Origin: an uncultured Methanosarcinales archaeon
Lineage (GTDB): Archaea; Nanobdellota; Nanobdellia; Woesearchaeales; CAYSVS01
Direction of reading: 5' to 3'
DNA length: 38,299 nucleotides
Assembly: GCA_964589485.1 (NCBI GenBank)
Contig: CAZPRK010000008.1
Coordinates: forward strand, 1-38,299
In this document: positions 9,822 to 27,950 of the stretch, one piece after another
Position numbering within the stretch: position 1 is the first letter of the stretch
Layout of the letters: every line of letters starts with the position of its first letter
Notes under the pieces: generated by a model
What the model was told of the DNA's origin: nothing
The model's database searches: none
Seen by the model: only the letters and a program-made list of their open reading frames with translations
Position numbers and translations under genes: made by a program

Positions 9822-10195
9822 ATACTTTCAGCTATTGCTTTTAATCCTTTTTTTAGTGTACTTTGATCTGCAATTTTAGAATGTATGTAAGGTTTAATAA
9901 TCCATTTTTGATCTGTTTCTGGATTAACAAAATAAATAATTATATTTTCATTTTTTTTTAATTGTGTCCATTTTTTAATTACTTGATCTAAATTATTTTT
10001 ATTATTCATAAAAACTATTCCGATGTTTTTATTTAAATCAAGGTTTTCTAAGTTTGGTTCAACTATGAATTCTTTTGAATAATTTCCATATTCTATAATT
10101 ATAGAATTATCTTTATCACTAATTTTTTTAATTTCATTATTAATCATATCTTTATTTTCTAAATATGTTTTTATCCAAAGTTTAAGTTTATCCAT
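9809..10195 (-). CDS. hypothetical protein
   Basis: 128-aa ORF overlapping the kinase gene end; YFVNP..QKWIIKPYIH..IAD...LKKGL motif. Confidence 0.7.
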   Translation of the reverse strand: MDKLKLWIKTYLENKDMINNEIKKISDKDNSIIIEYGNYSKEFIVEPNLENLDLNKNIGIVFMNNKNNLDQVIKKWTQLKKNENIIIYFVNPETDQKWIIKPYIHSKIADQSTLKKGLKAIAESIQPC

Positions 10196-10719
10196 TTTTC
10201 AACCTTTTTCTTTAAACTATCTAGAGAATTGTTATTATCAAACTTATAATCTGACATTTCAATACATTTTTTTAAATTTTGTTTACTTGGATCTTTATTA
10301 TTAAATTCTTTTTTTTCATCTTCTTTAAATTTATCAAAACTTATCTTATCAGTCTCACTACCTCTTTTGGTTATTCGTTCAAACCTAAGATGTTGTTCGG
10401 CATCAACTGCAATAAGTGTAAATTTTCCTTTTTGTTTTAAAGCTTCAATTTCTCCAGGAGTTCTTATACTTTCAATAATAATTTTATCTCCTTTTGCTTT
10501 GTTATATAAACTTTCTACTATGTAACTAGGTGACTTTGTTTTTCTTAAGTCATTGGCAACTATAACCATATTATCTCTGTTTATTTCTAAATCTCTTTTT
10601 TTTATTTCAGTAATAATAAAATCTCTTACAGAATAATCTTTAAAACCATGTTTAATTAAATGGTTGACTATTGTACTTTTGCCTGCTCCTAATGTTCCAG
10701 TAATTCCGATTACTTCCAT
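10171..10719 (-). CDS. P-loop kinase (dephospho-CoA/nucleoside-monophosphate kinase-like)
   Basis: IGITGTLGAGKST P-loop, IIIESIR...E and RFERITKRG lid. Confidence 0.8.
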   Translation of the reverse strand: MEVIGITGTLGAGKSTIVNHLIKHGFKDYSVRDFIITEIKKRDLEINRDNMVIVANDLRKTKSPSYIVESLYNKAKGDKIIIESIRTPGEIEALKQKGKFTLIAVDAEQHLRFERITKRGSETDKISFDKFKEDEKKEFNNKDPSKQNLKKCIEMSDYKFDNNNSLDSLKKKVEKWINLNFG

Positions 10720-10816: not shown

Positions 10817-11683
10817 TTGAAAACTTATTTAGATATTGTAAAAAAGGTTCTTAATGAAGGAAAAATACAGGCTACAAGACAAGGAATAGACGCTTATACT
10901 CTTCCTGCTGCTTATTTTGAACATGACATGGAAGATGGATATCCTTTATTAACTACAAAAAGTGTTCCTTTGAGGTTAGTTGCTTCAGAACTTGAATTTT
11001 TTATGAAAGGAATTACAGATAAAGAATGGCTTAAAGATAGAAATAATCATATTTGGGATGAATGGTGTAGCCCAGATAAGGTTCCTTATGCTCATGATGA
11101 AGAAACATATAAAAAAATGGCAGAAGAAAGAGAATTAGGTCCAATATATGGTTGGCAATGGAGAAATTATGGAGCAAAATATACTGAATATGATAAACCA
11201 CCTATTGGAAAAGGTGTTGACCAATTAAAAGAAATAATTAGACTAATAAAAGAAGATCCTCAAAGTAGAAGAATGATTTTATTGGCATGGAATCCTGTTG
11301 ATCTTCCAAGAATGGCATTGCCGCCTTGTCATTATTGTGTTCAATTTAATGTAGTTGATGGAAAGTTAAATTTAATGTGGAATCAAAGGAGTGTTGATGT
11401 TGCATTGGGTCTTCCATTTAATATTGCAAGTTATGCATTACTTCTTCACTTAATGGCAAAGGAAACTGGGTTAAAGGAAGGAAAGTTAATCGGGTTTTTA
11501 TCAAGTGTTCATATTTTTGTAAATCATGTTGAAGGTTTAAATGAACAATTATCTAGGGAACCTATGAAATTATCTGCTATTGTGACAAGTAACTTTACTT
11601 CAATATTTGATTGGAAATATGAAGATACTGAAGTATTAGAATATGAACATCATCCAAGAATTAAATTTGAGATTGCGATTTAA
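10817..11683 (+). CDS. thyA: thymidylate synthase (ThyA)
   Basis: PLLTTK, IWDEW, GPIYGWQWR, SRR, LPPCH (catalytic Cys), QRSVDVALGLPFN. TTG start after GGGG. Confidence 0.97.
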   Translation: MKTYLDIVKKVLNEGKIQATRQGIDAYTLPAAYFEHDMEDGYPLLTTKSVPLRLVASELEFFMKGITDKEWLKDRNNHIWDEWCSPDKVPYAHDEETYKKMAEERELGPIYGWQWRNYGAKYTEYDKPPIGKGVDQLKEIIRLIKEDPQSRRMILLAWNPVDLPRMALPPCHYCVQFNVVDGKLNLMWNQRSVDVALGLPFNIASYALLLHLMAKETGLKEGKLIGFLSSVHIFVNHVEGLNEQLSREPMKLSAIVTSNFTSIFDWKYEDTEVLEYEHHPRIKFEIAI

Positions 11684-11684
11684 A

Positions 11685-12146
11685 ATGGAAATAATAATGA
11701 TAGCTGCACTAACAAAAGATAGAGTTATTGGTAAGAATAATACTTTAATTTGGCATATTCCTGAAGATATGAAACTTTTTAAAAATTATACTCAAAATAA
11801 TACTGTTATTATGGGAAGAAAAACTTATGATTCTATGGGGAAGGCTTTGCCAAATAGAAATAATATTGTTTTAACTAAAAGTGATTTAAATTTAGAAGAT
11901 GCAGATGTGTGTCATTCAGTTGAAGAATCTTTAGAAAAAGCTAAATCTTATGGAAAAGATATTTTCGTAATTGGTGGTGGAAATATTTATTCTCAGTTTT
12001 TAGATAGATCTAATAAATTATATTTATCTTGGGTTAAACAAACTTATGATGGAGATGCTTACTTCCCAGAATTTAATCAAAATAATTGGAATATTGTTAG
12101 AAAAGAAGATTATGAACAATTTGAATTTATAGAATATGAAAGGTGA
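11685..12146 (+). CDS. folA: dihydrofolate reductase
   Basis: IAA...[40 protein letters not shown]. Start refined to ATG 11685. Confidence 0.96.
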
Positions 12147-13423
12147 TTAAAATAGAACAATTAAAAAATCAAGATCCAGAAGTTTATAATGCAATTGAAG
12201 GTGAATTGAAAAGGGCAAGGCAAGGGATAGAATTAATTGCAAGTGAAAACTTTGTTTCTTTGGCTGTATTACAAACTGCAGGAACAGTATTAACTAATAA
12301 ATATAGTGAAGGTTATCCTAGTAAACGTTATTATGGTGGGAATGAATTTGTAGATGTAACTGAAAATTTAGCAATTGAAAGAGCTAAAAAGTTATTTGGA
12401 GCAGAACATGTTAATGTACAAAGTCATGCAGGAAGTCAAGCTAATATGGCCGCATACTTTGCAATTCTTAATCCAGGTGATACAATATTAGGAATGAATT
12501 TAGCGCATGGTGGACATTTAACTCATGGAAGTCCAGTAAATTTTTCAGGTAAATTGTATAACATTGTTCCGTATGGTGTTGAAAAAGATAGTGGGATTAT
12601 TGATATGGATGAAGTTGAAAAAATTGCTTTAGAACATAAACCAAAATTAATTCTGGCGGGCTTTAGCGCATATCCAAGAAAATTAGATTTTAAAAGATTT
12701 AGAGAAATTGCAGATAAAGTTGGAGCTTACTTAATGGCTGATATTGCACATGTTGCGGGTTTAATTGCGGCAAAAATATATCCTGATCCAGTTCCTTATT
12801 GTGATATTGTTACAACAACAACTCATAAAACTTTACGAGGACCAAGAGGAGCAATAATCATGTGTAAGGAAGAAGATAGATTAAATCCAGATGATAAAAA
12901 AAATTTAGCTAGAAAAATTGATAGCGCAGTTTTTCCTGGGATGCAAGGTGGACCATTAGATCATATTATTGCAGCTAAAGCTGTTGCTTTTAAGGAGGCA
13001 TTACAACCTGAATTTGTTGAATACCAAAAACAAGTAGTAAAAAATGCTCAAGTATTGGCTGAAACATTGCAAGACAATAATATTAGAGTTGTAAGCGATG
13101 GAACTGATAATCATTTAATATTAATTGATCTTACAAATTTAGCATGTACTGGAAAGGAAGCTGAACTTGCTTTAGATAATGCTAACATATACACTAATAA
13201 AAACATGATTCCTTTTGATCCTGCTACTCCTTTTAATCCTTCCGGGATTAGGTTAGGAACGCCAGCATTAACAACAAGGGGAATGAAAGAAGAAGAAATG
13301 AGGTTAATTGGAACATGGATTTCAGATGTATTAAAGAATTTTGATAATGTAGATGTTATTACTAATATACAAAAAGAAGTCTTAGAATTATGTGAAAAAT
13401 TTCCACTTTACTCTGAGTTATAA
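12143..13423 (+). CDS. glyA: serine hydroxymethyltransferase (bacterial/THF type)
   Basis: [34 protein letters not shown] (PLP Lys), SGIRLGTPA. Confidence 0.97.
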
Positions 13424-13894
13424 TTTTATTACTTTTTTATTACTTTCAATATCATTTAACATTTGTTGTTGAGTTTTTTTAGTTACTGGGTGTATAAATT
13501 CAGAATCAATTTCTGTCATTGCAGTAAGAATATATTTTCTTTGATGTGCAACAAAATGTGGGATTATTACGGGAGGTTGTTCTATTGTTTTATCTCCATA
13601 ATATAATAAATCTAAATCAATTATTTTATCGTCATCTCTTTCAAAGTTAATTCTTCCACCTTGATATTCTATTTTTTTTACAGTTTCAAAAGTTTCTTTT
13701 GCAGTCATATCTGTTTCTACTTTTACTACTCCATTAAGAAAATTATTTGTTTGATTATTGTAAACAGGTTCACAATCGTAAAATGAAGAAATATCTATAA
13801 TTGTAAAATTATTTTTTATTAGAGTTAACACTTTCGCTATATTTCTAGATCTATCTCCTCTATTTGATCCAAATGAAATATAACAAATAACCAT
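13418..13894 (-). CDS. folK: HPPK (2-amino-4-hydroxy-6-hydroxymethyldihydropteridine pyrophosphokinase), divergent
   Basis: YISFGSN.G, SSFY..EP, FLNGV, IE...GR, IDLDLL, IPH....R. Confidence 0.85.
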
Positions 13895-13929: not shown

Positions 13930-14553
13930 CTAATACTCAATTCCTCTTCTTGCCATTACCCCATCATCAAAATAATGTTTAATTTGTTTCATTTCTGTAA
14001 CTAAATCAGCTAGTTTGATCATTTCAATATGAGCATTTCTACCTGTTATTATTAATTCAGTTGCTGGGTTTTTTGCTTTAACTACTTCTAATGCTTGCTG
14101 TATTTCTAACATTTTGAAACTAACTGCACAATTTAATTCATCTAGAACAACCATGTCATAATCTCCGCTAGAAACTACTTTCTTGGCATGGGCAACTGCA
14201 TCTTGAACAAAAACTTTATGTTCTTCATCGTTGGCAAAGCAATGTCGACATTCACCGCATTCAATATTTTCTCTATGCCATGTTTCGGGTTTTTCTTCAA
14301 ATTTACTGAAATCCATTAATTTTAATTGAGTGTTATCTTTAATACATCCTTTTCCAAATTGTACTATGTCTGCATTTGGAAGAAATTGTTTTATGCTAAT
14401 TAATTCTCCAGTATAAGATCCACCTTTCATGAATTGGATAATATAAACTTTAAAACCTTGACCAACTGCTCTCATAGCAAGCCCCATTGCAGCTGAAGTT
14501 TTACCTTTACCATGACCTGTGTAAACTTGAATAAGTCCTAGTTTTTTGGTCAT
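13930..14553 (-). CDS. btuR: BtuR/CobO-type ATP:cob(I)alamin adenosyltransferase with Cys-rich insert
   Basis: GLIQVYTGHGKGKTSAAMG, IQFMKG, VVLDE, ITGR.A, ADLVTEM..IKHYF..G..ARRGIEY. Confidence 0.93.
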   Translation of the reverse strand: MTKKLGLIQVYTGHGKGKTSAAMGLAMRAVGQGFKVYIIQFMKGGSYTGELISIKQFLPNADIVQFGKGCIKDNTQLKLMDFSKFEEKPETWHRENIECGECRHCFANDEEHKVFVQDAVAHAKKVVSSGDYDMVVLDELNCAVSFKMLEIQQALEVVKAKNPATELIITGRNAHIEMIKLADLVTEMKQIKHYFDDGVMARRGIEY

Positions 14554-17213
14554 TAGTATTCACATTTACTGAATCCGCATTCAACATTAACGCAAGCAAA
14601 ACATCCATTGTCAACTTTTAGTGTTGGTTTTTCACATGATGGACATTTTCTTAAGTTTTCATCAATAGCTTCTTCTTCTTGTTTTTCTGGTTCTTTTTCT
14701 TGCTTTATTTCGCTAAGGATTTCTTTTATTGGTGTACCATTATAGCTTAATGTTTCAAGCGCAATGTTTTCTTTAAGTGAATGGTAAACTGTAGATAATT
14801 TTCCATCTGGTTTTTCTACAATACTTGATCCATTTAAACTATGTATTTGATCATTTTCTAATTTAATGTTAAAAGTTTGTCCTTGCATTCTTTGAAATTC
14901 TGATTCTTTTCCTGAAACACTTAATATAGCATACCTTGATCCGTCTCTATATATAGTAACTCCTTTAAGTTTATTTTTCCATGCTAAAAAATAAATGTCT
15001 GAAATTATTTCAGGATGAATGTCTTCGGGTAAATTACAAGTACTTGAAATACTATGATCTATATATTGTTGACAAATTCCTTGTATTTTAACTCTCATTT
15101 CAGGTGTAACGTGATGTGCAGTTCTAAAGAAATAATCGGGTAAAATTCCTCTTAAATCTTCTTCTTCACTTACTGTTGCAATTTCATCTTTAATGTTTTT
15201 TACATCAATGTAAGCTTGGATTGTTCCATGGAATACTTTAAAAAAATGTTCACCAACAGTTTCGGTTCTTCTAGTGTAAAATAATGCAAATATTGGTTCT
15301 ATTCCAGAACTTACTCCTATGTAATGCTTATTATCTTTCTTAAATCCAAGTACGACATTAGATATGCTTCCAGTAGGCGCAATAGATAAAATTGCTACAT
15401 TTCTTATACCATTTGCTTTAATTTTTTCTTGTACGTCAGGAGATAACATTTCTTTGAAATAAGCTCCTTTAATGTAATCTTCAGTGTTCCATGCTTCAGG
15501 TGTACCTTTTTCACTTGCTAAATTTGCACTTTCATCGTAAGCACTATCTGAAATTTGTTTAGCAACTTTTTCCATAATTTCAATACCCTTATCACTATCG
15601 TACCCTAGCCCTAATTGGTTAAGCATGTCTGCAATTCCGATGTATCCTAAGCCTATTCTTCTTGTTGTTTTTGCAGAATTTCTTTGTTTTTCTAAAGGGT
15701 TTAAGTACGTATTCCACGTAATAACATTATCTAAAAATCTAGTTATTAATCTAGTAACTCTATCAATTTCGCTATAATCTATTTCAGCGTTTTCTTCATA
15801 TCCTTTTTTAACAACTCTTGATAGGTTTAAAGATGTTAAATTACAAGCTCCTCCATCTTCTAATGGAACTTCTCCGCATGGGTTAGTTGAAGCAATAGGT
15901 CTTCCAACATAATTAGATGGACTATATTTTGCCATTGTACTCCAAAAAATTAACCCTGGCTCGGCAGTTTCATAATTACTTTGAATGAATCTATGCCAAA
16001 TTTTGTCTGCTTTAACTAAATTTTTAATTTCACCGGCTTGTTCGGATGCAAAATATAACATAAAATCTCCGCTGAATTTAATTGCTATTTTTCTGTTATC
16101 TTTTTCTATAAGAAAGTCACCGTATTTATCTCTTTTATTTACATCATTTAAATCTTCTTTAGTTAAATTAACATTTAAGACTGAATTCAATTCTTCAATA
16201 GATTCAAAATTATGTGCCAGTTTATAATTTTCAATTTTTTTAGATGGAATTTCAAAAGAATAATGCCCTAAGTTATTTTCTTCAAAGTCAGTTTTATCAT
16301 AAACCAATATTTTTTCTTTTCCAAATTGCCTTGTTTCATCTACTGCTTGCATAAATTCATCATTTACTTTTAATGATATGTTTGCAAACCTTACTTGTGT
16401 ATTTTCTCTAACTTTTTGTCTTATTTGGTTAACTTGAAGTTCATCAAAATTTCCGCTCCATTTACATTGATCTGCAATATGTTTTGTTACCCAATTATCT
16501 TCTCTTTTAACATTTGTGAATTTAAATACATCTGGATGTTTAATGTCTAATGTAAGCATTAAAGCTCCTCTTCTTCCGCTTTGCCCAATTAATCCAGTAG
16601 TCATAGAATATAGTTCCATAAATGATACTGCTCCTGTGCTGGCATCTGCTGCATTATGCACAACGCTTCCCTGAGGTCTTAGGTTTGAAATATCAACTCC
16701 GATCCCGCCACCATATGAATAAGTTCTTGCACATTCTTTTGCAGCATTAAAAATACTTTCAATGCTATCATCTTCAATTAAACTTACAAAACAATTAGAT
16801 AAGGTTTTTACTCTGAATAAATCCCCTGCCCCTGCAATAACTCTTCCTCCAGGTATAAATAACCCTTCAAATAGTCCGTTGTAGAATTTAATTGCAAATT
16901 CCTCTCTTTTTTCTTTAGAAGTTTCTGCAGCAGCTACAAATGCAGCAACTCTAGCAAAAGTTTGTTCTGGCTTAGTTTCAATTAACTTAATATCTAGGTC
17001 TTTTAGAAAATATTTTTTCTGATAAATATTGGTAGCAAGTTCATTGCTATCAAGATAATCTTCATGAGTGGGAATTTCCTTTGATTTTTGTTTTTCAATC
17101 AAAAAAGTTAATAATTCTTTATAATTATTAATCATTTCTTTTGGAGCAACTTTACTTATTTTACTATCGTGTTCAAACATTGACTTTATTTTTTCTTCAT
17201 ACATATTTTCCAT
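14553..17213 (-). CDS. nrdJ: class II (adenosylcobalamin-dependent) ribonucleotide reductase
   Basis: PGGR, LSNCFV, GGGIG, RRGALM, EPG, TNPCGEVPL, CNL, RRIGLG, IAPTGSIS, DHSISSTCN, KGVTIYRDGSR and a C-terminal CPSC..C..C...C....C ribbon. Coupled to the adenosyltransferase gene; no nrdB in the window. Start refined to MENM after AGGTGA. Confidence 0.93.
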   Translation of the reverse strand: MENMYEEKIKSMFEHDSKISKVAPKEMINNYKELLTFLIEKQKSKEIPTHEDYLDSNELATNIYQKKYFLKDLDIKLIETKPEQTFARVAAFVAAAETSKEKREEFAIKFYNGLFEGLFIPGGRVIAGAGDLFRVKTLSNCFVSLIEDDSIESIFNAAKECARTYSYGGGIGVDISNLRPQGSVVHNAADASTGAVSFMELYSMTTGLIGQSGRRGALMLTLDIKHPDVFKFTNVKREDNWVTKHIADQCKWSGNFDELQVNQIRQKVRENTQVRFANISLKVNDEFMQAVDETRQFGKEKILVYDKTDFEENNLGHYSFEIPSKKIENYKLAHNFESIEELNSVLNVNLTKEDLNDVNKRDKYGDFLIEKDNRKIAIKFSGDFMLYFASEQAGEIKNLVKADKIWHRFIQSNYETAEPGLIFWSTMAKYSPSNYVGRPIASTNPCGEVPLEDGGACNLTSLNLSRVVKKGYEENAEIDYSEIDRVTRLITRFLDNVITWNTYLNPLEKQRNSAKTTRRIGLGYIGIADMLNQLGLGYDSDKGIEIMEKVAKQISDSAYDESANLASEKGTPEAWNTEDYIKGAYFKEMLSPDVQEKIKANGIRNVAILSIAPTGSISNVVLGFKKDNKHYIGVSSGIEPIFALFYTRRTETVGEHFFKVFHGTIQAYIDVKNIKDEIATVSEEEDLRGILPDYFFRTAHHVTPEMRVKIQGICQQYIDHSISSTCNLPEDIHPEIISDIYFLAWKNKLKGVTIYRDGSRYAILSVSGKESEFQRMQGQTFNIKLENDQIHSLNGSSIVEKPDGKLSTVYHSLKENIALETLSYNGTPIKEILSEIKQEKEPEKQEEEAIDENLRKCPSCEKPTLKVDNGCFACVNVECGFSKCEY

Positions 17214-17237
17214 AATATCACCTACTTTAAAATGAAA

Positions 17238-17284
17238 ACACAACATATTGTGATTTTCTTGAAATAAAACACAATATAAATTTT
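17238..17284. promoter_or_regulatory. tandem NrdR-box-like operators upstream of nrdJ
   Basis: ACACAACATATTGTGA (17238-17253) and ACACAATATAAATTTT (17269-17284) versus consensus acaCwAtATaTwGtgt; starts 31 bp apart. Confidence 0.7.
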
Positions 17285-17321: not shown

Positions 17322-18449
17322 TTATAGTTTCAAGTACTTAATATATTTAGTATATATTTCTTTCCGTGAATCACTTACAATAAAACAACTTCCCGTTATT
17401 AAACATTGTTGATTTAAATCATTGGCATATTTAATTGCTTTATTTACATTATTGAAAACAATGCATTTATCAAATTCTTTGGCAATTATTTCGGGATTTA
17501 AAGATCTTGAATTGTTAGCTTTTGTTATTATTATGTTTTCGACTTTTGGTAAATGCTTAATCATTTCTTTGTAATTTTTATCTTTCATACATCCAAAAAT
17601 TATAGTATTTGCTTTAACATTTTTTAAGGTTTTGATGGCTGCTTCATTATGCGCGCAATCTAGGATAAAATTACCAATTTTTTCTTGTCTTCCTGGAAAT
17701 TTTAAATGTTTTAAAGGAAAGTCTATATCTTGTTTTTTTATTTCAGGTAAGATTTCTTTCACTGTTGTAATTGCTATTTTTGCATTTTTTATTTGATGTT
17801 CGCCTTCTAAATTTAATTTAATATTAAGGTTTGTGTCATCATTAACGCAAACTAATATATTTCCAATATTGAAAATATCTTTTAATTTGTTATCTCCTCC
17901 ATATATAACAATAGACTTTGGTTTAATAATTCCGGCTTTTTCTTTTGCTATTTCTTCGATAGTATTTCCCAAAAATTCAGTATGTTCTAATGAAATGTTT
18001 GTTATTACGCAATAATCTGCATTAACTATATTGGTAGCATCTAACCTTCCGCCTAGTCCAGTTTCCCATACAACATAATCAACATTATTTTCATAGAAAT
18101 ATTGTAAAGCCATTGCAGTTGTAAATTCAAAGAACGATAAATTAACGTTCTTTTCTTTAATTAAATTAATTAATCTATCGACATCTTTATTGGAAATCCA
18201 TTTATCGTTAATAGTGATTCTTTCATTAAAATCTATTATATGGGGTGAATTATATCTTCCAACTTTATAGCCAGTTTGAGTTAATATTGTTTGTATCATT
18301 AAAGAAGTTGAACCTTTTCCATTAGTTCCTGCGATGTGTATGAAATTAAGTTTATTTTGAGGGTTATCTAGTTTTTCACAAATTTCTTTCATGGCATCTA
18401 GATTTAATTTGTCAGCCATTGGTTTAAGAGAGTAAAGCCATTGTTTCAT
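17322..18449 (-). CDS. folC: folylpolyglutamate synthase/dihydrofolate synthase
   Basis: IHIAGTNGKGST, YNSPH..DFNERI, ETGLGGRLDATN, ISLEHT..LG, EKAGI, PGRQE, LDCAHN, ITGS. Confidence 0.95.
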   Translation of the reverse strand: MKQWLYSLKPMADKLNLDAMKEICEKLDNPQNKLNFIHIAGTNGKGSTSLMIQTILTQTGYKVGRYNSPHIIDFNERITINDKWISNKDVDRLINLIKEKNVNLSFFEFTTAMALQYFYENNVDYVVWETGLGGRLDATNIVNADYCVITNISLEHTEFLGNTIEEIAKEKAGIIKPKSIVIYGGDNKLKDIFNIGNILVCVNDDTNLNIKLNLEGEHQIKNAKIAITTVKEILPEIKKQDIDFPLKHLKFPGRQEKIGNFILDCAHNEAAIKTLKNVKANTIIFGCMKDKNYKEMIKHLPKVENIIITKANNSRSLNPEIIAKEFDKCIVFNNVNKAIKYANDLNQQCLITGSCFIVSDSRKEIYTKYIKYLKL

Positions 18450-18502: not shown

Positions 18503-19648
18503 ATGAACATAGAAGTAATAGATCACGATAATATACAGAATAAAGATGTACTTAAATTAATCTACACCAAAAAAGATCTTCCTAAAACTCAATTATTTGG
18601 TTCTAATGATGTAATTATTGGTAATCAACTTTCTAATATTGCTGTTATTTTTATTTATTCTTGGAAAAGTAATATCCCTTCAAAGGAAATTAAAGAATTT
18701 TTTCAAAAAGTTTCTAATTATGCGGCAATTACTGGTTTTTGGCGAACTACTAATGGAGGAAAGTATGCTTTTGCAAACTTATTAGCCAATCCTAATATTA
18801 ATAAATTAGTTGCTGTTTGTTTTGATGAAGATAATAGTCATTATTTATTAGATTCTTTAAGATGTCTATGGAAACATGGAACTGATAAAAAAGGTGTGAT
18901 TAAAAAAAGTAAAGCATCAAATCCTAAGTTTGAACAAGTTCCAGTTGAAGCTTTACAAAGAGCTACTAAACAAATGGATTTAGTAATTTTAACTAATGCT
19001 GAAAAAAATAAAGTAGAAAATACTATTAGAGCTTGTTATCAAGAACCAAAAAATGCGGTTAACATTCCAAAATATGCTGAATTTTATTCAAAATTAAATT
19101 TAACTAAGTTATATGATGATGGTGCAAGATTTAAAGAACCTTATGTTGTAGATTTAAGTAAGGGTAGTATGAAATTTTTGGATATTAAATATTCTTTAGA
19201 TCCTTCTATTGGTTTTTCATTATATTCTGAAACTGAAAAAGAAGCTTTAGATCAAATGATTTCTTATATGTTTGACCATGGTTATTGTGTTAAGGAAACA
19301 AAGAAAATTAAAGAAATGGAATGTCGAAACTTAAGTATTACAATCTCTAACTCTAAAAATGAAACTTCTAAGGTTGATGTTAGTCAACTTATGATTGAAC
19401 TTAAAAAAAATAAATCTGCTAAATTTAATAATCTTAATTTTTTTATAAGGAATAATAAACTAGAATGTTACGCTTTATTTGATAATTATCTGTTAGCAGA
19501 AGTAAGTAAAGATATAAAATCTAATTTATTGAATGAAATTAAAAAAATATCTAGAATACATACAAGTTTAGCTAAGTCTTTGAAAATAAACAAAAGTATA
19601 TTGTCTCTTAATTTTTTAACAGCTAACATTATTTTTGATAAGGTTTAA
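18503..19648 (+). CDS. MtrA-like (corrinoid-binding) domain fused to a degenerate thymidylate-synthase-like domain
   Basis: N-half DVIIGN..SNIAV, AAITG..RTTNGG...ANLLANPNI..L, SHY, L..LWKHG.D..G.I, P..EQVP.EA..R..KQ.DLV follows the MtrA pattern. The C-half resembles an archaeal ThyA scaffold lacking PC and RSxD. Confidence 0.7.
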   Translation: MNIEVIDHDNIQNKDVLKLIYTKKDLPKTQLFGSNDVIIGNQLSNIAVIFIYSWKSNIPSKEIKEFFQKVSNYAAITGFWRTTNGGKYAFANLLANPNINKLVAVCFDEDNSHYLLDSLRCLWKHGTDKKGVIKKSKASNPKFEQVPVEALQRATKQMDLVILTNAEKNKVENTIRACYQEPKNAVNIPKYAEFYSKLNLTKLYDDGARFKEPYVVDLSKGSMKFLDIKYSLDPSIGFSLYSETEKEALDQMISYMFDHGYCVKETKKIKEMECRNLSITISNSKNETSKVDVSQLMIELKKNKSAKFNNLNFFIRNNKLECYALFDNYLLAEVSKDIKSNLLNEIKKISRIHTSLAKSLKINKSILSLNFLTANIIFDKV

Positions 19649-19673: not shown

Positions 19674-20336
19674 ATGCAAGGTAAGTTAATAGTTATAGAA
19701 GGAACTGATGGAAGTGGGAAAGGAACTCAAACTAAGTTATTGTTTGAAAAGTTAAGTAAAGATCATAATGTTGAAATGATTGAATTTCCACGTTATGGTG
19801 AAAGAAGTGCTATGTTAGTTGAAGATTACCTAACTGGTAAGTTTGGTTCTGCTGAAGAAGTAACTGCTTATCAAAGTTCAGTTTTTTATGCCGTTGATAG
19901 ATTTGATGCAAGTTTTAAAATAAAAGAATGGTTAGCTCAAGGTAAAATTGTATTATGTAATAGATATGTTTCTGCTAGTATGGGTCATCAAGCTGGAAAA
20001 ATTAAGGATAAAGAAGAAAGACAAAAATTTATTGAATGGCTTGAAGGTTTAGAGTATAATATTTTTAACCTTCCTAAACCTGATGTAACTATTTTATTAA
20101 ATATGCCTCCTGCAATGGGTCAGAAGTTAGTTGATAAGAAAGGTCATAGGGATTATACTGAAGGAAGAGATATTCATGAAGCTGATTTCAGTCATTTGAA
20201 AAACGCTTACAATGCATTTTTAGAAGTTGGTAAAGAAAAAAATTGGATTAAGATTGATTGTGCACCAAATGATGAATTAAGAACAATTGAAGATATTAAT
20301 GAAGAATTGTTATCTAAACTTCAACCTTTAATTTAG
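19674..20336 (+). CDS. tmk: thymidylate kinase
   Basis: VIEGTDGSGKGTQ, EFPRY, YAVDRF, NRYVSAS, LPKPD. TTTAAATA promoter candidate at ~19644. Confidence 0.93.
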   Translation: MQGKLIVIEGTDGSGKGTQTKLLFEKLSKDHNVEMIEFPRYGERSAMLVEDYLTGKFGSAEEVTAYQSSVFYAVDRFDASFKIKEWLAQGKIVLCNRYVSASMGHQAGKIKDKEERQKFIEWLEGLEYNIFNLPKPDVTILLNMPPAMGQKLVDKKGHRDYTEGRDIHEADFSHLKNAYNAFLEVGKEKNWIKIDCAPNDELRTIEDINEELLSKLQPLI

Positions 20337-21003
20337 GATATTTTTGTAATATTATTTCTTTTATGTTTTCTAAGAATATCTCTGTAGGTGGATTAATTGC
20401 ATAATATTTTTTATCAAGACAAACTTCATTATTGAATTTATTTAATTTCCAAGTTACATCATATTCACTTACAAATTTAGCTATCTCAAGTAAATCTTCT
20501 TTTCTATACATTAATGAAGGAACAACCAAGGTTCTAAATTCAGCATATATGTTATTTTCTTTGATTAGTTTTAAAGATTCTGTGATGTCATTCATAATAC
20601 TGTGGCTTGGTTTAAAGAATGTTTGCGATTTTGTAACTTTTTCAAAAGTTTCGTTAAAGGGAGCTTTTATGTCAAATATTATTTTATCTACTAAATTTAA
20701 TTTGAACAAACTTAGTAAAGTATTTGGTTTACTTCCATTTGTATGAAGAATAATTCTTTTTCCAAGTTTCTTAGCATATTTTGCTAATTCTAACAATGCT
20801 GGTCTTTGTAAACATGGTTCACCTCCTGTAAAAAGAATTTCTTTAAAATTATTATTTTTAATTTCTTGTTTAATTTCTCTTATGTCTATTAAGAATTCTT
20901 CTTTAAAACTTAACATTTCTGGAGTGTTGCAAAATCCACAATTAAAATCACATCCTGAAAAGTAAATAGTATTACCTGAAAATTCAGCAATATATGCTTG
21001 CAT
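20314..21003 (-). CDS. radical SAM protein, NrdG/organic-radical activase-like
   Basis: GCDFNCGFC (CxxxCxxC), FTGGEPCLQ, HTNGS, DIKAP, EFRT..VP. Confidence 0.85.
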   Translation of the reverse strand: MQAYIAEFSGNTIYFSGCDFNCGFCNTPEMLSFKEEFLIDIREIKQEIKNNNFKEILFTGGEPCLQRPALLELAKYAKKLGKRIILHTNGSKPNTLLSLFKLNLVDKIIFDIKAPFNETFEKVTKSQTFFKPSHSIMNDITESLKLIKENNIYAEFRTLVVPSLMYRKEDLLEIAKFVSEYDVTWKLNKFNNEVCLDKKYYAINPPTEIFLENIKEIILQKYPKLKVEV

Positions 21004-21428
21004 TATTGATGCCCTGTGCTACCAAATCCACCTTCTCCTCTGGAAGTATCATTTAATTCATCTACAACAGTTAACTTTGCTTGAACAACTGGCATAATTA
21101 ACATTTGCGCAATTCTCATATTTCTTTCGATTTTGAAAATTTCATTACTATGGTTAATCATTACTACACCAATTTCCCCTCTATATCCTGCATCTATAAT
21201 TCCTGCCATAGTGTTAATTGAATTTTTAGCAGCTAAGCCACTTCTTCCTCTAATATTTCCAACAAATCCTGGTGGAATTTCAATTGCTAACCCAGTTGGA
21301 ACAATAACTTTTTCACCTGGTTGCATCTCAGTGTCAATTTTACTCCTTAAATCAAATGCTGCATCGTTTTCTGCTGCATATATTGGTGTATCTAAATCTT
21401 GATCTAATTTTTTAATTCTAACTTCCAT
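21003..21428 (-). CDS. dut: trimeric dUTPase
   Basis: AAFDL, VPTG, RSGLA, GIIDAGYRGE, RIAQ, RGEGGFGSTG. Confidence 0.97.
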   Translation of the reverse strand: MEVRIKKLDQDLDTPIYAAENDAAFDLRSKIDTEMQPGEKVIVPTGLAIEIPPGFVGNIRGRSGLAAKNSINTMAGIIDAGYRGEIGVVMINHSNEIFKIERNMRIAQMLIMPVVQAKLTVVDELNDTSRGEGGFGSTGHQ

Positions 21429-21430
21429 TT

Positions 21431-21925
21431 TTATATTTCCTCCTGAATTAAACTTTGTTTTTGATGTGAAATAACTTCTCCGTTAATAGCGTTTATTTTA
21501 ATATTGATTGTGCTAACGTCCATTGTTAAATATGTGATGTTCCACATATTTACATTATTAATACTTTGCAGTAAAATTAATGCTTTATTTGTGCTAGCTT
21601 TAGGATATTCTTGTAATGTTTCTTTTGCTTTTTCTATAGCTTCTTCGTATGTTACTCTAACTTTTTCTAAATCAAGAATTCCAACTTTATCTTCTGGTTT
21701 TTTAAATGGTTCTTGAAGAGGCTCAGGAATTATTTCTTTAGAATTAACCGTAAATTGGGCAACTAAGTTAGTACTTTCATTGTAAAACCCAATTTGCCAG
21801 TCTAGTTTAATATTATTCTCGGCCATAGTAAAGAAATGGCTTAATTTAGCATTAGGATTTTCTTTTAGATATTGTTTAAATTTAAAATCTTCAATTAATT
21901 TATCGTATGCTTCTTTATATTCCAT
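21431..21925 (-). CDS. hypothetical protein with PepSY-like C-terminus
   Basis: WQIGFY; VTYEEAIEKA...INIKINAINGEVI. First gene of the dut/radical SAM run. Confidence 0.65.
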   Translation of the reverse strand: MEYKEAYDKLIEDFKFKQYLKENPNAKLSHFFTMAENNIKLDWQIGFYNESTNLVAQFTVNSKEIIPEPLQEPFKKPEDKVGILDLEKVRVTYEEAIEKAKETLQEYPKASTNKALILLQSINNVNMWNITYLTMDVSTINIKINAINGEVISHQKQSLIQEEI

Positions 21926-25057: not shown

Positions 25058-25114
25058 AATATATACTGTAGAAGAATAATGCTTAATATAAGAGTATCGA
25101 TTACTTATGTCAAA

Positions 25115-27085
25115 ATGAGGATATACTATGCAAGCCAGTCATTCTACCCTTTTATAGGCGGAGTACCTACATACTTGCTCAACTTAGCAAAAGAAATGGT
25201 CAACCTTGGAAATGAAGTCGTAGAAGTACATCTAAGAAGTTCTCATGCTGACGCTGATGATGAAATAAAGGGTGTCAAAGTACATAGAGTTCCAAGGGAA
25301 CCAATTAACTTCGACATCATGAAGATGTATAGTAAATTCAAGGAATCTGTTTATAAGGAATGTCATGAAAATAAAAATATCTTTGTTAATACTGCAGATA
25401 AAATGCCAGGATTCTTTGAATTTAATCAAGTAAATGAATACTTTGGAGAACAAATCAAAGATTTGTTTGAAAAAGAAAGCCCAGACATTGTACATATTCA
25501 TGACTTTCAATTACTTTTCGCATATAAATATGTACCCAGAGGAACTCCATTAATTCTTACTTGGCATATTCCAATAATTAAAAATATTTCTAAACACCTT
25601 TCTAATTTTTTAATAAAACATTTGAAACAGTACGATAAAGTAGTATTCTCAAGCCAAGAATATATTGACGCAATAGTTGAACTAGGATTTCCAAGAGAAA
25701 AAACTGAACTTATATACCCTATTGCGAACACGGATTTGTTTAAAATAATTGAATATGATAAAGAAAATGTATTAACTAAATATAACTTAAATAAGAACGA
25801 TAACAATATCTTATCAGTTCAAAGAGTTGATCCAAAGTCAGGGCATGAACAATTAGTAAGAGCATTACCAAGAATATTAGAAAAAGTTCCAAATGCTAAA
25901 TTAGTTTTTGTTGGAGGAGAATCATTAAGCAATCAACTTTCTGAAGAAAGAAAATTAATGCTAGAAGATCTAAAAAATTTAATTAAAGAATTAAACATTG
26001 AAGATAAAGTTATTTTCACAGGTAATATCGAATATCATATACTTCCGGAATTGTATAACTGTATCGATGTAGTTGCTCTATGTTCTAAAAATGAAGGATT
26101 TGGACTTTCTGTTACAGAAGGGATGGCTTGCGGAAATCCAATAGTAGCTACAAGAGTTGGTGGTTTACCTTTACAAGTTCAAGATGGAATAAACGGTTTC
26201 TTGGTTGAAGTAAATGACATTGCCGATACAGCCGCTAAAATCATCAAAATTCTTACAGATAAAGAATTGAAAAATAAAATGAAAGATAACTCTATTAATA
26301 TAGTTGAAAATAATTTCAAAAAAGAAATTGGAATTAAAAATCATCTTTCAATGTATAATTATCTAATAGGAGTAAAAGATGAATTTCATAAGATTGAATA
26401 TCTTAAAACTAAAGAAATAAAAGGAATTATATGTGACTTAGATAGAACTTTAATAGATGTTCCAGCAAAAAGAAAGTTTGACCCTGAAGATTTTAAAACA
26501 GCTCCGTTTAAAGAACTTGAATCACTAGGAATTGATCTTTTCCTAAGCACCGGAAGAAACATTGAATTTGTTAAAAAGTTATGCGAAACTTTTCCAATCT
26601 GGAGAGCAGTTATTGCAGAGAATGGAGCTATAATATATTTTCCTAAAACTAAGAAAACTTTACTTATAAACACAGATTATATGAAAGAAGTTAAGGAAAA
26701 AGTTAAAGAATTAAACTTACCCAATACAACCATAGGGAGAGTTATAACAAGCAACAGATGGGAAGATAAAGAATTGATACATGAAAAATTAGGTGACCTA
26801 TTTCATCAAGTTAACTGTGTGAAAAATGTTGATGAAATGATGTTAATCCCTGAAGGTGTTGAAAAAGGCCTTGCTACAAGAATAACTATGCAATATTTAA
26901 ATATTGACATAGAGAAAACAATCGTAATAGGCGATGGTGAAAATGATATTGACTTATTCCAAAATCCTGGGTTTAAAATTGCTGTTTCAAATTCTAGTGA
27001 AAAATTAAAAGTTTTAGCTAACCAAGTAACTTCTCTGCCAGCATCTTCTGGAGTTAAGGAAGTAATTCAAAAGTTAAAGGAATAA
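25115..27085 (+). CDS. GT-B (GT4-like) glycosyltransferase fused to a HAD-IIB phosphatase
   Basis: FYPFIGG, HIHDFQ, TWHIP, QRVDPKSG, EGFGLSVTEGMACG, then DLDRTL, STGR, AENGA, KG, GDGEND. Start refined to MRIYY. Confidence 0.88.
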   Translation: MRIYYASQSFYPFIGGVPTYLLNLAKEMVNLGNEVVEVHLRSSHADADDEIKGVKVHRVPREPINFDIMKMYSKFKESVYKECHENKNIFVNTADKMPGFFEFNQVNEYFGEQIKDLFEKESPDIVHIHDFQLLFAYKYVPRGTPLILTWHIPIIKNISKHLSNFLIKHLKQYDKVVFSSQEYIDAIVELGFPREKTELIYPIANTDLFKIIEYDKENVLTKYNLNKNDNNILSVQRVDPKSGHEQLVRALPRILEKVPNAKLVFVGGESLSNQLSEERKLMLEDLKNLIKELNIEDKVIFTGNIEYHILPELYNCIDVVALCSKNEGFGLSVTEGMACGNPIVATRVGGLPLQVQDGINGFLVEVNDIADTAAKIIKILTDKELKNKMKDNSINIVENNFKKEIGIKNHLSMYNYLIGVKDEFHKIEYLKTKEIKGIICDLDRTLIDVPAKRKFDPEDFKTAPFKELESLGIDLFLSTGRNIEFVKKLCETFPIWRAVIAENGAIIYFPKTKKTLLINTDYMKEVKEKVKELNLPNTTIGRVITSNRWEDKELIHEKLGDLFHQVNCVKNVDEMMLIPEGVEKGLATRITMQYLNIDIEKTIVIGDGENDIDLFQNPGFKIAVSNSSEKLKVLANQVTSLPASSGVKEVIQKLKE

Positions 27086-27139
27086 AAAGCAAACCTTTAT
27101 AATTCTAAGATTCATATATTTAATAAAAGAGGTTTCACT

Positions 27140-27949
27140 ATGGAAATTACTGTTATTGGAGATACAACTTTAGATTTAGTTGCAGAACAAGTTTCTAAGC
27201 TTCCAAAAGAAGATACTGAATTATTAACTACTTTTACACCAAAGTTAGGTGGCCAGGCTGCGCATTGTGCATTAGCTTTAGCTGAACTAGGTGTTAAAGT
27301 TACTTTTATTACATGTATTGCTGAAGGTAATGAAAAAATTATAAAAAAATTAAATAAATGTAAGTTAAAATTACAAAAAGAAAAAAAATCAGCTATATCT
27401 GTAATTATACCAACACCTAGTAAAAGAACAATTATTAATCAAAGAGGAGCTAATGAAGAATTAGTTTACAAAGATAAAATTAAAACTAAATATGTTTTTA
27501 TAGGTGGGTTCTGGCATATTCCTAAATTTAATGTTGAAAAATGTTTAAAGGATGCAAAAAACCCTATTGTATTCATGGATGTAGGATATAATGAAAAAGC
27601 AAATGTATCTAAATTAAAAAAAACTTTGAAATATGTTGATTATTTCTTTGCAGATGAAAAAGAATTAATGTTATATCATAATGCTCAAAGTCTAGAACAT
27701 GTGTTTCAAAAAGTAGATTGTGTATTAGGAATTCACATGGGAAAACGAGGAAGTGCAGTATATGACCATGGAAAATTAGAAGTTTCTAAAATTACGTCAA
27801 AATACTCAGGAGAAACTACAGGAGCAGGAGATTATTGGAACGCTGGATTTATTTATGGAACTATGAAAAAATGGCCTGATAAGAAAAAATTAGAATTTGC
27901 AAATAAATTTACAATAAAAATGTTAAAAAAAAACATACATAAATTATAA
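27140..27949 (+). CDS. PfkB/ribokinase-family carbohydrate kinase (paralog 1)
   Basis: GGQAA.CA.ALAELG and TTGAGDYWNAGF. GAGG RBS and AAACCTTTATAA promoter candidate at 27091-27102. Confidence 0.88.
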   Translation: MEITVIGDTTLDLVAEQVSKLPKEDTELLTTFTPKLGGQAAHCALALAELGVKVTFITCIAEGNEKIIKKLNKCKLKLQKEKKSAISVIIPTPSKRTIINQRGANEELVYKDKIKTKYVFIGGFWHIPKFNVEKCLKDAKNPIVFMDVGYNEKANVSKLKKTLKYVDYFFADEKELMLYHNAQSLEHVFQKVDCVLGIHMGKRGSAVYDHGKLEVSKITSKYSGETTGAGDYWNAGFIYGTMKKWPDKKKLEFANKFTIKMLKKNIHKL

Positions 27950-27950
27950 A

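Follow-up and report, generated by a model that had tools for sequence, protein, structure and literature searches.

A DPANN archaeal fusion of an MtrA-like corrinoid-type module and a ThyA-derived half predicted to be catalytically inactive

In a 38,299-nucleotide stretch of archaeal DNA (contig CAZPRK010000008.1; “the window” hereafter), a gene lying between folC and tmk encodes a protein that joins an MtrA-like N-terminal module to a degenerate half derived from thymidylate synthase (ThyA). The locus raises the question of what a domain bearing MtrA's cobalamin site might do when it is attached to a synthase that appears to have lost its chemistry. Of the two known routes to thymidylate, ThyA and ThyX, neither uses B12, and a search of the openly accessible literature found no paper describing an MtrA-ThyA fusion or DUF4346. 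The explanation that we favour, with a probability of about one half, is that the protein is a maintained, derived DPANN MtrA-like/ThyA fusion, in which the synthase half has been inactivated and the corrinoid module has been kept on a ThyA-derived scaffold.

The fusion gene and its genomic setting

No overlapping ORF of at least 60 aa occurs in the other frames along the fusion gene (Table 1), whose product is modelled by AF2 with a pLDDT of 88. The 53-bp divergent spacer between folC and the fusion ORF contains the TATA-box-like element TTTATAAA, which would fit a promoter belonging to the fusion gene itself and a short or absent leader. The thyA-folA-glyA genes (10817..13423) likely represent the organism's working dTMP cycle. 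The first-pass annotation of this DNA had placed an intact thyA 7 kb away and had seen no other mtr gene, and both observations hold: among the 38 scanned ORFs of the window there is no further mtr gene, mtrB-H being absent. Neither Rfam models nor a tRNA scan gave a match in the window, and therefore no B12 riboswitch was detected.

Table 1. Coordinates of the fusion gene, its parts and its neighbours in the window.
Feature	Position	Strand	Remarks
thyA, canonical	10817-11683	+	PF00303, 300.9 bits
folA	11643-12146	+	overlaps thyA and glyA
glyA	12143-13423	+	overlaps folA
folK/HPPK	13418-13894	-	
btuR/cobA adenosyltransferase	13930-14553	-	
nrdJ	14553-17246	-	TIGR02504, 499.6 bits
folC	17322..18449	-	TIGR01499, 319 bits; divergent to fusion ORF
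TATA-box-like element TTTATAAA	18472..18479	+	24 nt 5' of ATG; sequence reading
Fusion ORF, 381 aa	18503..19648	+	MtrA-like N-module and degenerate ThyA-derived C-half
N-terminal beta-hairpin extension, aa 1-35	18503..18607	+	strands 2-9 and 14-20 in model; family-conserved
MtrA-like Rossmann-type domain, aa 36-186	18608..19060	+	Pfam, PDB 5laa, Foldseek
TTNG, aa 82-85	18746..18757	+	aligned to MtrA loop K52-T53-E54-N55
H113 codon	18839..18841	+	aligned to cobalt-ligating His84 of MtrA (5laa)
NPKFEQ, aa 140-145	18920..18937	+	counterpart of MtrA meander motif
N-module tail, aa 187-235	19061..19207	+	invariant Y204-D205-x-G207-x-R209
Stripped methanogen-type ThyA core, aa 236-381	19208..19645	+	
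tmk (thymidylate kinase)	19674..20336	+	25 nt 3' of fusion ORF
NrdG-like radical-SAM activase	20314-21003	-	116 bits, below cut-off 131
dut	21003-21428	-	

The surroundings of relatives were surveyed at 16 related loci, the P0002 locus (see below) not being among them. At 10 of these, the neighbours include tmk, thyA, folA, glyA, folC, dut or nrdD, and the gene order fusion-tmk is repeated in four (L001, L009, L013 and L016), but btuR and nrdJ were found near none of the 16 (tblastn, E<=1e-5). The “B12/dTTP cluster” of the first-pass annotation is thus a conserved setting as regards its dTMP, folate and dNTP genes, but not as regards its B12-related members, which are seen as neighbours in this window only. 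These observations bear on a narrower form of the favoured explanation, according to which the protein is a dedicated B12 carrier or chaperone for BtuR and NrdJ, or a B12 sensor tying cobalamin supply to dTTP synthesis. The location of btuR and nrdJ between glyA and folC, less than 4 kb from the fusion gene, and the retention of the corrinoid-site residues would agree with such a role. However, we grant it only a small chance: the carrier role that had been put forward earlier is drawn solely from the arrangement of this window, and the conserved context does not support a B12-related role, because btuR and nrdJ adjoin the family in 0 of 16 related loci and one relative (L008) adjoins nrdR-nrdD-nrdG, NrdD being B12-independent. 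In addition, we know of no B12 chaperone with an MtrA-like fold.

Nor is the intact thyA nearby, to which the first-pass annotation had pointed, a feature that sets the dead form apart, as canonical thyA-folA adjoins an intact fusion in all four loci L002-L005. For the same reason, the arrival of a canonical thyA was considered as the origin of the dead form and rejected as insufficient.

The fusion family and its MtrA-like module

The statement in the first-pass annotation that MtrA-ThyA fusions exist in other lineages was accurate: both PF04208 and PF00303 are present in 88 of 108 relatives, and PF00303 in 19 of the 39 distant MtrA-like representatives that were scanned. The family comprises a large number of ~450-aa (about 445-455 aa) fusions from DPANN archaea, and the source names on more distant MtrA-ThyA fusions are Thermoprotei, Nanohaloarchaea and Aenigmarchaeota. 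The in-frame degenerate ThyA form is confined to two of the 108 relatives, the window protein itself (P0001) and P0002, which is 77% identical to it. In a quick tree rooted on the distant rows P0117 and P0113, these two form one clade (SH-aLRT 100) that branches among the full-length members; going by these sequences, the dead-ThyA form is a rare, derived variant within the family. When stand-alone ThyA proteins related to the C-module were sought, 14 short matches were obtained, among which no stand-alone form was seen; most of them apparently are end-of-contig fragments, as their contigs are mostly short.

The assignment of the N-half to MtrA, which had been made from motifs, is confirmed by several searches. 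Pfam PF04208 (MtrA) matches aa 37-186 at E 1.9e-12 (47.6 bits; gathering score 25), a sequence search of solved structures aligned MtrA (PDB 5laa) to the N-half at E 3.1e-13, and Foldseek with the AF2 model retrieved 5laa at E 1.5e-8 with a target-normalised TM of 0.75. The NCBIfam equivalog models for MtrA score far under their cut-offs (TIGR01111, 44.2 versus 249; NF002126, 64 versus 161). Beyond the end of the MtrA match (aa 186), the chain continues into the ThyA-derived domain, without a C-terminal membrane anchor. The intervening aa 187-235 aligned tentatively to the part of an MtrA+DUF4346 protein where PterinBD-DUF4346 begins, and aa 221-236 form a low-confidence linker in the model.

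For MtrA, the structural report describes His84 as the lower axial cobalt ligand, Glu54 as hydrogen-bonded to His84, Tyr18 as stacking on the cobalamin base, and a “meander” with the consensus GAIPF(Y/F)XEN (PMC4915002). When the cobalamin contacts given there are transferred through the 5laa alignment, D17, T53, N55, N64, residue 82 and H84 correspond to D36, T82, N84, N92, N111 and H113 of the window protein, and G57 corresponds to G86 (PMC4915002). The former six residues are all invariant across the 60 aligned relatives, and the motifs DNxH and TTNG each occur in 108 of 108 relatives. H113, whose codon lies where the first-pass annotation had put it (18503 + 112 x 3), would therefore occupy the cobalt-ligand position of His84, as that annotation had proposed. 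The TTNG loop retains Thr and Asn of MtrA and has T83, which is invariant in the clade, in place of Glu54, the corresponding residue of distant MtrA-ThyA fusions being Ala; Tyr18 is replaced by Val, and in the meander stretch ASNPKFEQ, Pro and Glu alone match the MtrA consensus. The alignments thus show that the N-module has kept all family-invariant residues (D36, TTNG, NPNxN, DNxH, NP, Q157/D159 and YDxGxR) as well as most of the MtrA cobalamin-contact positions.

Alternatively, the N-module might be MtrA-like in fold only, binding a pterin, a nucleotide or a partner protein and acting as a regulatory or scaffolding subunit, e.g., of Tmk, FolC or ThyA. The replacement of Glu54 by Thr in the clade and by Ala in distant fusions, together with that of Tyr18 by Val, is in line with this view, and so are the conserved dTMP/folate/dNTP neighbours and the absence of B12 genes from the 16 related loci. 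The MtrA-like domain also changes partners: it recurs with PterinBD-DUF4346 (in two of the 39 distant representatives scanned, and in many rows of another listing), MtrA+DUF4346 proteins are the nearest Atlas clusters (scores 0.87-0.88, a lead only), and in one sub-clade the C-terminal partner is exchanged for a MafI2-like domain. The low NCBIfam equivalog scores count against the favoured explanation, as does the N-module stem branch in the quick tree, which is long (0.64 changes per column versus a median end branch of 0.19); N-module function may have been altered along it. However, the residues invariant in the family are exactly those of the loops by which MtrA holds cobalamin, the ligand His being present in 108 of 108 relatives, and we know of no alternative ligand site in the MtrA fold. 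We therefore consider a fold-only N-module unlikely, though it is to be taken seriously.

The ThyA-derived half and the constraint on it

The ancestry of the C-half is less readily recognized. Neither PF00303 nor TIGR03283, the prototype of which is presumably MJ0757, matches the window protein at E<=1 in Pfam and NCBIfam, and BLASTP of the protein against the window's own ThyA gives an E of 4.0. By hhalign, however, 141 of the 146 residues of the C-half align to a profile built from 53 full-length fusions (probability 96.9%, E 1.3e-10). Descent from the methanogen-type ThyA module of the family is thereby shown at the level of profile comparison, the relationship being detected against the family profile and not against library models. 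In structural comparison, Foldseek relates the window protein to the ThyA/dCMP-hydroxymethylase superfamily weakly (E 8e-5 to 1e-3, target TM <=0.46), whereas a full-length relative matches the ThyA fold at E ~1e-10 with a target TM of up to 0.75. The two-domain reading of the first-pass annotation is hence upheld, and its expectation that each half would match by profile and fold is borne out for MtrA; for ThyA it is borne out by the family profile and weakly by fold, but not by Pfam or NCBIfam. A weak NCBIfam 6PTHBS match (E 0.22, aa 246-302) had suggested a folate enzyme of the FolB/FolP type; this candidate was dropped, the region being a ThyA homologue by hhalign.

According to the model and the alignments, the C-half retains the beta-sheet and three helices of ThyA. 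It has lost the catalytic Cys loop, the helical segment that lies between the first strands of the sheet and the RR loop, and all five catalytic motifs. There are internal deletions of ~40, ~20 and 5 alignment columns, ~66 residues are missing, and the segment with the nucleophilic Cys (LWDP...PPCLDFIW) is deleted. The positions of the phosphate-binding arginines, which we take to be R21, R126', R127' and R166 in E. coli ThyA numbering, are replaced (DQR to ETK, NTRR to KSAK, RSHH to FDNY), as are VPN with the base-specifying Asn (LNE) and SGHLY with the His/Tyr pair (TANII). These losses, read from the alignments and by mapping onto the window's own ThyA, agree with the first-pass annotation, which had described the C-half as apparently internally deleted and as lacking the catalytic PC and RSxD motifs, and whose quoted MtrA and ThyA motif strings are all found in the ORF. 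Because the Cys, the phosphate arginines, RSxH, VPN and GHxY are all lost, the ThyA half is shown, as far as conserved residues can tell, to be catalytically dead, and dTMP synthesis by ThyA chemistry would be impossible. A predicted homodimer of the C-half (two copies of aa 236-381) scored 0.01 against a mark of 0.42, a value that speaks neither for nor against a dimer. Could the protein have remained an enzyme for dUMP or dCMP, with its nucleophile relocated? Some cysteines are left in the C-half, and its closest fold matches include small ThyA-fold enzymes of other chemistry, such as the dCMP hydroxylase 9iqu. Yet the phosphate-binding Arg positions, the base-specifying Asn and the His/Tyr pair have all been lost together with ~66 residues of the active-site region, and we regard such an activity as very improbable.

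The two halves have diverged at different rates. Between P0001 and P0002, identity is 86.8% in the MtrA domain and 64.4% in the C-half, whereas in 52 of 55 pairs of full-length members it is the C-module that is better conserved. The enrichment of FYMINK residues in the C-half relative to the N-half is +0.063 in the window protein and negative in every one of 86 full-length members. The relaxed constraint on the C-half also fits slow decay, i.e., a gene without selected function in which the redundant ThyA half erodes and the N-half has so far diverged little. Besides the ~2.7 times faster divergence of the C-half and its shift towards AT-coded residues, broken forms elsewhere in the family point in this direction, namely P0060 (363 aa, on a 17,260-bp contig), the fragment P0300 (likewise on a contig of 17,260 bp) and the truncated P0103. 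However, both copies of the dead form, which is known from these two sequences only, share the same in-frame deletions and keep the C-half frame open over 146 and 145 codons at 64% identity, as happened in 38 of 2000 runs of a neutral simulation to that identity, which was substitution-only, ignored indels and treated all divergence as neutral. The N-module invariants are all intact, the model is confident, and the gene retains its usual position directly 5' of tmk and a TATA-like element upstream. Nor is redundancy alone a cause of decay, because L002-L005 pair a full-length fusion with canonical thyA. On balance, decay without any selected function appears quite unlikely.

That the MtrA-like module stays constrained where synthase chemistry is gone suggests that the module has its own function. 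In the favoured explanation, a maintained fusion with an inactivated synthase half, the N-module would still bind a corrinoid in the base-off/His-on mode, the beta-sheet core of the ThyA remnant would give it structural support, and the remaining role would be that of the corrinoid module itself, i.e., holding, handing over or sensing the corrinoid, in this lineage beside tmk, folC, nrdJ and btuR. dTMP would be supplied by the canonical thyA-folA-glyA operon. A more far-reaching idea, which we find rather doubtful, is that the fusions at large make or control thymidylate in archaea by a cobamide-dependent mechanism that has yet to be described: a protein-bound methyl-corrinoid might methylate Cys-activated dUMP, or the corrinoid might provide the reducing step without release of dihydropterin. 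In that case, the window protein would represent a natural separation-of-function mutant, its corrinoid module being kept for a second job such as B12 handover to the adjacent BtuR and NrdJ.

Comparison with known systems

Fusions of ThyA to a domain with the MtrA cobalamin site occur in many archaeal lineages and lie among dTMP genes, and the dead-ThyA form offers a simple protein for a test of cobalamin binding. Its closest counterparts are the DPANN fusions (e.g., P0004), labelled [quoted passage not shown] by source pipelines, which are 58-64% identical in the MtrA domain and share the invariants, the domain order and the genomic place beside tmk, folC, thyA and dut. Unlike the window protein, they have an intact ThyA module (NTRR, PPC, RSHH, VPN and SGHLY; TIGR03283, 131 bits). 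With methanogen-type ThyA (TIGR03283), the biochemistry of which is described as poorly known (PMC9012536), the C-half has a common ancestry that is traced via the family profile, but neither a direct match nor any catalytic residue.

The bifunctional DHFR-TS of protists is analogous in layout, with a Rossmann-like cofactor domain at the N-terminus and TS at the C-terminus, and provides the top whole-chain Foldseek rows for a full-length relative. However, the TS half alone superposes (TM ~0.3, rmsd ~20 A), and the N-domain of the relative is MtrA-like, not DHFR. Bacteria and archaea also have MtrA + PterinBD-DUF4346 proteins (PF04208 + PF14251), in which a short beta-rich tail follows the MtrA-like domain, and one of them (P0174) aligns to the family by hhalign at E 9e-11, the match extending into the YDDGARF region. 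They lack a ThyA-derived half, and DUF4346 is undetected by Pfam in the window protein.

Compared with the MtrA soluble domain and a cytoplasmic MtrA homologue (5laa, 5l8x; PMC4915002), the N-module has the Rossmann-type fold in common and shares the ligand His together with the Asp, Thr and Asn contacts to the nucleotide tail and propionamides. It is ~29% identical to MtrA, from which it differs by the exchanges Glu54 to Thr and Tyr18 to Val and by the altered meander, and the window protein additionally has the N-terminal hairpin, a C-terminal YDDGxR tail and the ThyA-derived fusion partner. Unlike MtrA of the Mtr complex, it is encoded without mtrB-H nearby and in a host that is no methanogen. 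Like the cytoplasmic MtrA homologues of methanogens, it is soluble; the function of these homologues was left open by Wagner, Ermler & Shima (2016, PMC4915002), and the outcome of a cobalamin-binding test on the dead-ThyA protein would bear on them as well.

A ThyA-derived C-terminal half without catalytic residues

The start codon of the target ORF agrees with those of its relatives in the alignment, and no rival ORF in the other frames reaches 60 aa. The C-terminal half of its product (aa 236-381), described by the first-pass annotation as a catalytically dead thymidylate synthase (ThyA) scaffold, matches no Pfam or NCBIfam library model and hits the window's own ThyA at E 4.0 (BLASTP); its last 72 residues match one relative at E 1e-5 (BLASTP). 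However, an hhalign comparison with a profile built from 53 full-length relatives reveals homology (probability 96.9%, E 1.3e-10, 141 of 146 residues); the ThyA module of these relatives is of the methanogen type (TIGR03283, 131 bits over positions 2-194 of 201, below the cut-off of 174.55; 37.5 bits on PF00303). In fold searches of the PDB with an E-value limit of 1e-3, a full-length relative returns 403 matches, and its thymidylate synthase matches reach E values of about 1e-10 and target TM values as high as 0.75; the window's protein returns 13, and its ThyA-superfamily matches get no further than 8e-5 and TM 0.46. These weaker matches reflect a reduced ThyA core: the region linking the first sheet strands to the central sheet comprises three helices plus the Cys-loop strand in the model of the full-length relative, but a single helix in that of the window's protein. 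The scaffold claim therefore stands on homology to the family profile, but not on a direct library match, and the fold match is weak.

When the window's canonical ThyA is aligned with the fusion-family profile (hhalign), five motif pairs emerge: SRR, PPCH, RSVD, PFN and VHIF correspond to NTRR, PPCL, RSHH, VPN and GHLY in the family. In the window's protein, the second is deleted, PC included, and the others read KSAK, FDNY, LNE and TANII, respectively; three deletions (about 40, about 20 and 5 alignment columns) explain its 66-residue shortfall. The lost motifs and internal deletions noted at first reading are thereby borne out. The C-half is ThyA-derived and lacks any catalytic residue, which rules the protein out as a ThyA-type thymidylate synthase; the remnant presumably acts as a scaffold.

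Descent of the dead form and constraint on its halves

Among 108 relatives (E<=1e-3), 88 carry both MtrA (PF04208) and ThyA (PF00303) domains and mostly measure 440-475 aa, nine combine PF04208 with PF26541, ten have PF04208 alone (including the fragments P0054 and P0076 and the truncated P0060 and P0103), and one has an unrelated second domain. The in-frame degenerate form is limited to the window's protein (P0001) and P0002 (380 aa, 77% identical). P0060 (363 aa) and a 115-aa ThyA fragment, P0300, each lie on a contig of 17,260 bp; this pair and P0103 look broken by frameshift or truncation; misassembly or independent decay may account for this.

In a quick maximum-likelihood tree of the N-module (105 rows: 102 of 107 family proteins, selected by a length and motif filter, plus three distant rows; a length rule mislabelled one fragment, P0054), P0001 and P0002 group together in a single clade (SH-aLRT 100). 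When the distant rows P0117 and P0113 serve as outgroup, this clade emerges among the full-length members and has a long stem (0.64 changes per column), and the dead form is therefore derived from an intact fusion. The MafI2-type clade (nine rows, support 100) likewise falls among full-length members. In this sub-clade (P0091-P0102, 330-354 aa), a domain of some 110 aa, listed as PF26541 and named MafI2 immunity protein by Atlas look-up (score 0.78, a lead only), takes the place of the ThyA half.

The two dead-form proteins share 86.8% identity in the MtrA domain and 64.4% in the C-half; in full-length members the C-module is the better-conserved half in 52 of 55 pairs. Moreover, the FYMINK fraction in the window's protein is 0.459 in the C-half versus 0.396 in the N-half, a difference reversed in all 86 of 86 full-length members. 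Both findings point to a loosened constraint on the dead half, and the N-module is conserved more strongly. The C-half is nonetheless open, at equal length, in both lineages; 38 of 2000 runs of a crude, substitution-only neutral simulation (window 19208-19645, to 64% identity) remained without a stop codon, and the open frame fits a retained structural role.

Gene neighbourhood

Features of the window and of one related locus, with recurrence of the window's proteins in 16 related loci
Feature	Position	Strand	Loci (of 16; tblastn)	Remarks
AAA_18/AAA_17 P-loop kinase, small	10171-10719	-	6	L001, L002, L003, L007, L009, L010
thyA-folA-glyA	10817-13423	+	thyA 4, folA 4, glyA 5	tight operon; overlaps thyA/folA 41 nt, folA/glyA 4 nt
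NrdJ	14553-17246	-	0	897 aa; Cys-rich tail CPSC...C..C..C...C after barrel domain
folC, dut			3 each	
TTTATAAA element	24 nt upstream of target ORF			in 53-bp spacer to divergent folC
Target ORF	18503-19648	+		single ORF, 381 aa
tmk	start 25 nt past target stop codon		5	downstream
NrdG-like radical-SAM activase	20314-21003	-	2	TIGR02495 116 bits, below 131 cut-off
PepSY-domain protein	21431-21925	-	6	L001, L003, L007, L013, L014, L016
GT4 glycosyltransferase-HAD phosphatase fusion (668 aa), PfkB kinase, GH15/trehalase-like hydrolase	25079-29750	+		
MafI2-type member	L012:10001-11008			103-kb contig titled Desulfobacteraceae; neighbours bacterial-type (GntR, SBP_bac_5, BPD_transp)

Nineteen window proteins were compared by tblastn with 16 related loci from genome_contigs, several of them short contigs, and 62 of 71 extracted neighbouring ORFs, from ten loci, were scanned with Pfam. 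Ten of the 16 loci have one or more dTMP, folate or dNTP genes near the fusion; the placement among dTMP genes is conserved, as is the family's link to deoxynucleotide and folate metabolism. However, btuR, nrdJ and folK are each found in none of the 16 by tblastn, several short contigs included. Of the proposed "B12/dTTP cluster" and its expected co-occurrence with nrdJ, btuR and tmk, the dTMP side thus recurs in the family (tmk in 5 of the 16 loci), while the association with B12 genes is confined to the window. In L008 (491-5352), an intact fusion is directly followed by nrdR, nrdD and an nrdG-like activase (Pfam scan), so that the family sits there with a B12-independent ribonucleotide reductase. 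No nrdD is seen in the window, where the only reductase is the B12-dependent NrdJ, despite the NrdG-like activase; the Cys-rich NrdJ tail resembles a zinc ribbon.

The window's thyA-folA-glyA operon presumably makes dTMP. Its ThyA is 60-70% identical to those of L002-L005, where canonical thyA-folA adjoins an intact fusion. Since both coexist there, canonical thyA alone cannot explain the loss of the ThyA half in the window, and was rejected as a sufficient cause. The small kinase, which adjoins the fusion or thyA in six of the 16 loci, may be a (d)NMP kinase of the cluster; over residues 67-182 it aligns with a portion of the NCBIfam "anti-phage dCTP deaminase" model (E 9.5e-14). For the PepSY-domain neighbour, a link to nucleotide metabolism is not obvious. 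The window (28% G+C) also includes CDC48 and UPF0182 genes, and the genes at its GT4-PfkB-GH15 stretch could form a compatible-solute or storage-sugar cluster.

MAGs yielding relatives bear the names Woesearchaeota, Nanoarchaeota or Nanobdellota, and by these names the window most likely comes from a DPANN archaeon. L001, L005, L006, L007 and L013 are titled "uncultured Methanosarcinales archaeon"; their fusions and several neighbours resemble those of Woesearchaeota MAGs, so these labels may be unreliable. The context of the MafI2-type member in L012 is bacterial-looking (Pfam scan).

Breadth of the fusion and the MtrA-like module

An exhaustive phmmer search with the N-module against 1.84 billion representatives returned 77 proteins at E<=1e-3. 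Pfam was run on 39 of these, chosen for their greater length from outside the close family; PF00303 accompanies a strong PF04208 match in 19, and the rest include PterinBD-DUF4346 (two), TusA (one), ferredoxin domains (one) and a spurious lipase (one). With the distant fusion P0139 as seed, 42 of the first 43 rows among the 120 of 413 matches listed carry both domains, and the source names listed include Thermoprotei, Nanohaloarchaea, Aenigmarchaeota and "DPANN group". The initial remark on MtrA-ThyA fusions in other lineages was thus correct; among archaea, the fusion is either ancient or has arisen repeatedly. A literature search covering few subscription journals found nothing on this architecture, which does not prove that none is published. 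The MtrA-like domain is also paired with PterinBD-DUF4346 (PF14251), with or without ThyA, and the reported sources of MtrA-DUF4346 clusters are mainly bacterial (Pseudomonadota, Chloroflexota). A search for "DUF4346" yielded no paper.

Searches with the N-half return MtrA, as the two-domain reading had proposed: Pfam (aa 37-186, E 1.9e-12, 47.6 bits, gathering score 25), solved structures (5laa at E 3.1e-13, 8q3v at 1e-8, 5l8x at 8e-8) and a fold search with an AF2 model built on 60 aligned sequences (mean pLDDT 88.0, pTM 0.59; 5laa at E 1.5e-8, target TM 0.75). In its solved structure, MtrA holds cobalamin base-off/His-on via His84, with Glu54 and Ile111 as hydrogen-bond linkage, Asn55 and residue 82 contacting propionamides, Asp17, Lys52, Thr53, Gly57 and Asn64 holding the nucleotide tail, and the base sandwiched between Tyr18 and Val61 (Wagner et al., 2016; PMC4915002). 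In the HMMER alignment with 5laa, Asp17, Tyr18, Lys52, Thr53, Glu54, Asn55, Gly57, Val61, Asn64, residue 82 and His84 map to D36, V37, R81, T82, T83, N84, G86, A89, N92, N111 and H113, respectively. None of D36, T82, T83, N84, N92, N111 and H113 varies among the 60 aligned relatives, and all 108 relatives have TTNG and DNxH; the family's best-conserved residues are therefore those of MtrA's cobalamin-holding loops. The alignment accordingly places H113 at the putative cobalt-ligand position, as suggested initially.

The N-module has the MtrA fold and retains the ligand His along with the majority of positions that contact cobalamin, and it is reasonable to expect from these residues that it would bind a corrinoid (cobalamin). 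The role of this module is speculative, as is any direct part that it might play in making thymidylate within the intact fusions. Compared with MtrA, the window's protein shows two clear departures, Glu54 to Thr and Tyr18 to Val. More distant MtrA-ThyA fusions have Ala in place of Glu54, and MtrA-like proteins without ThyA mostly retain TEN. The meander motif is altered as well, reading ASNPKFEQ in the window's protein for GAIPF(Y/F)XEN in MtrA.
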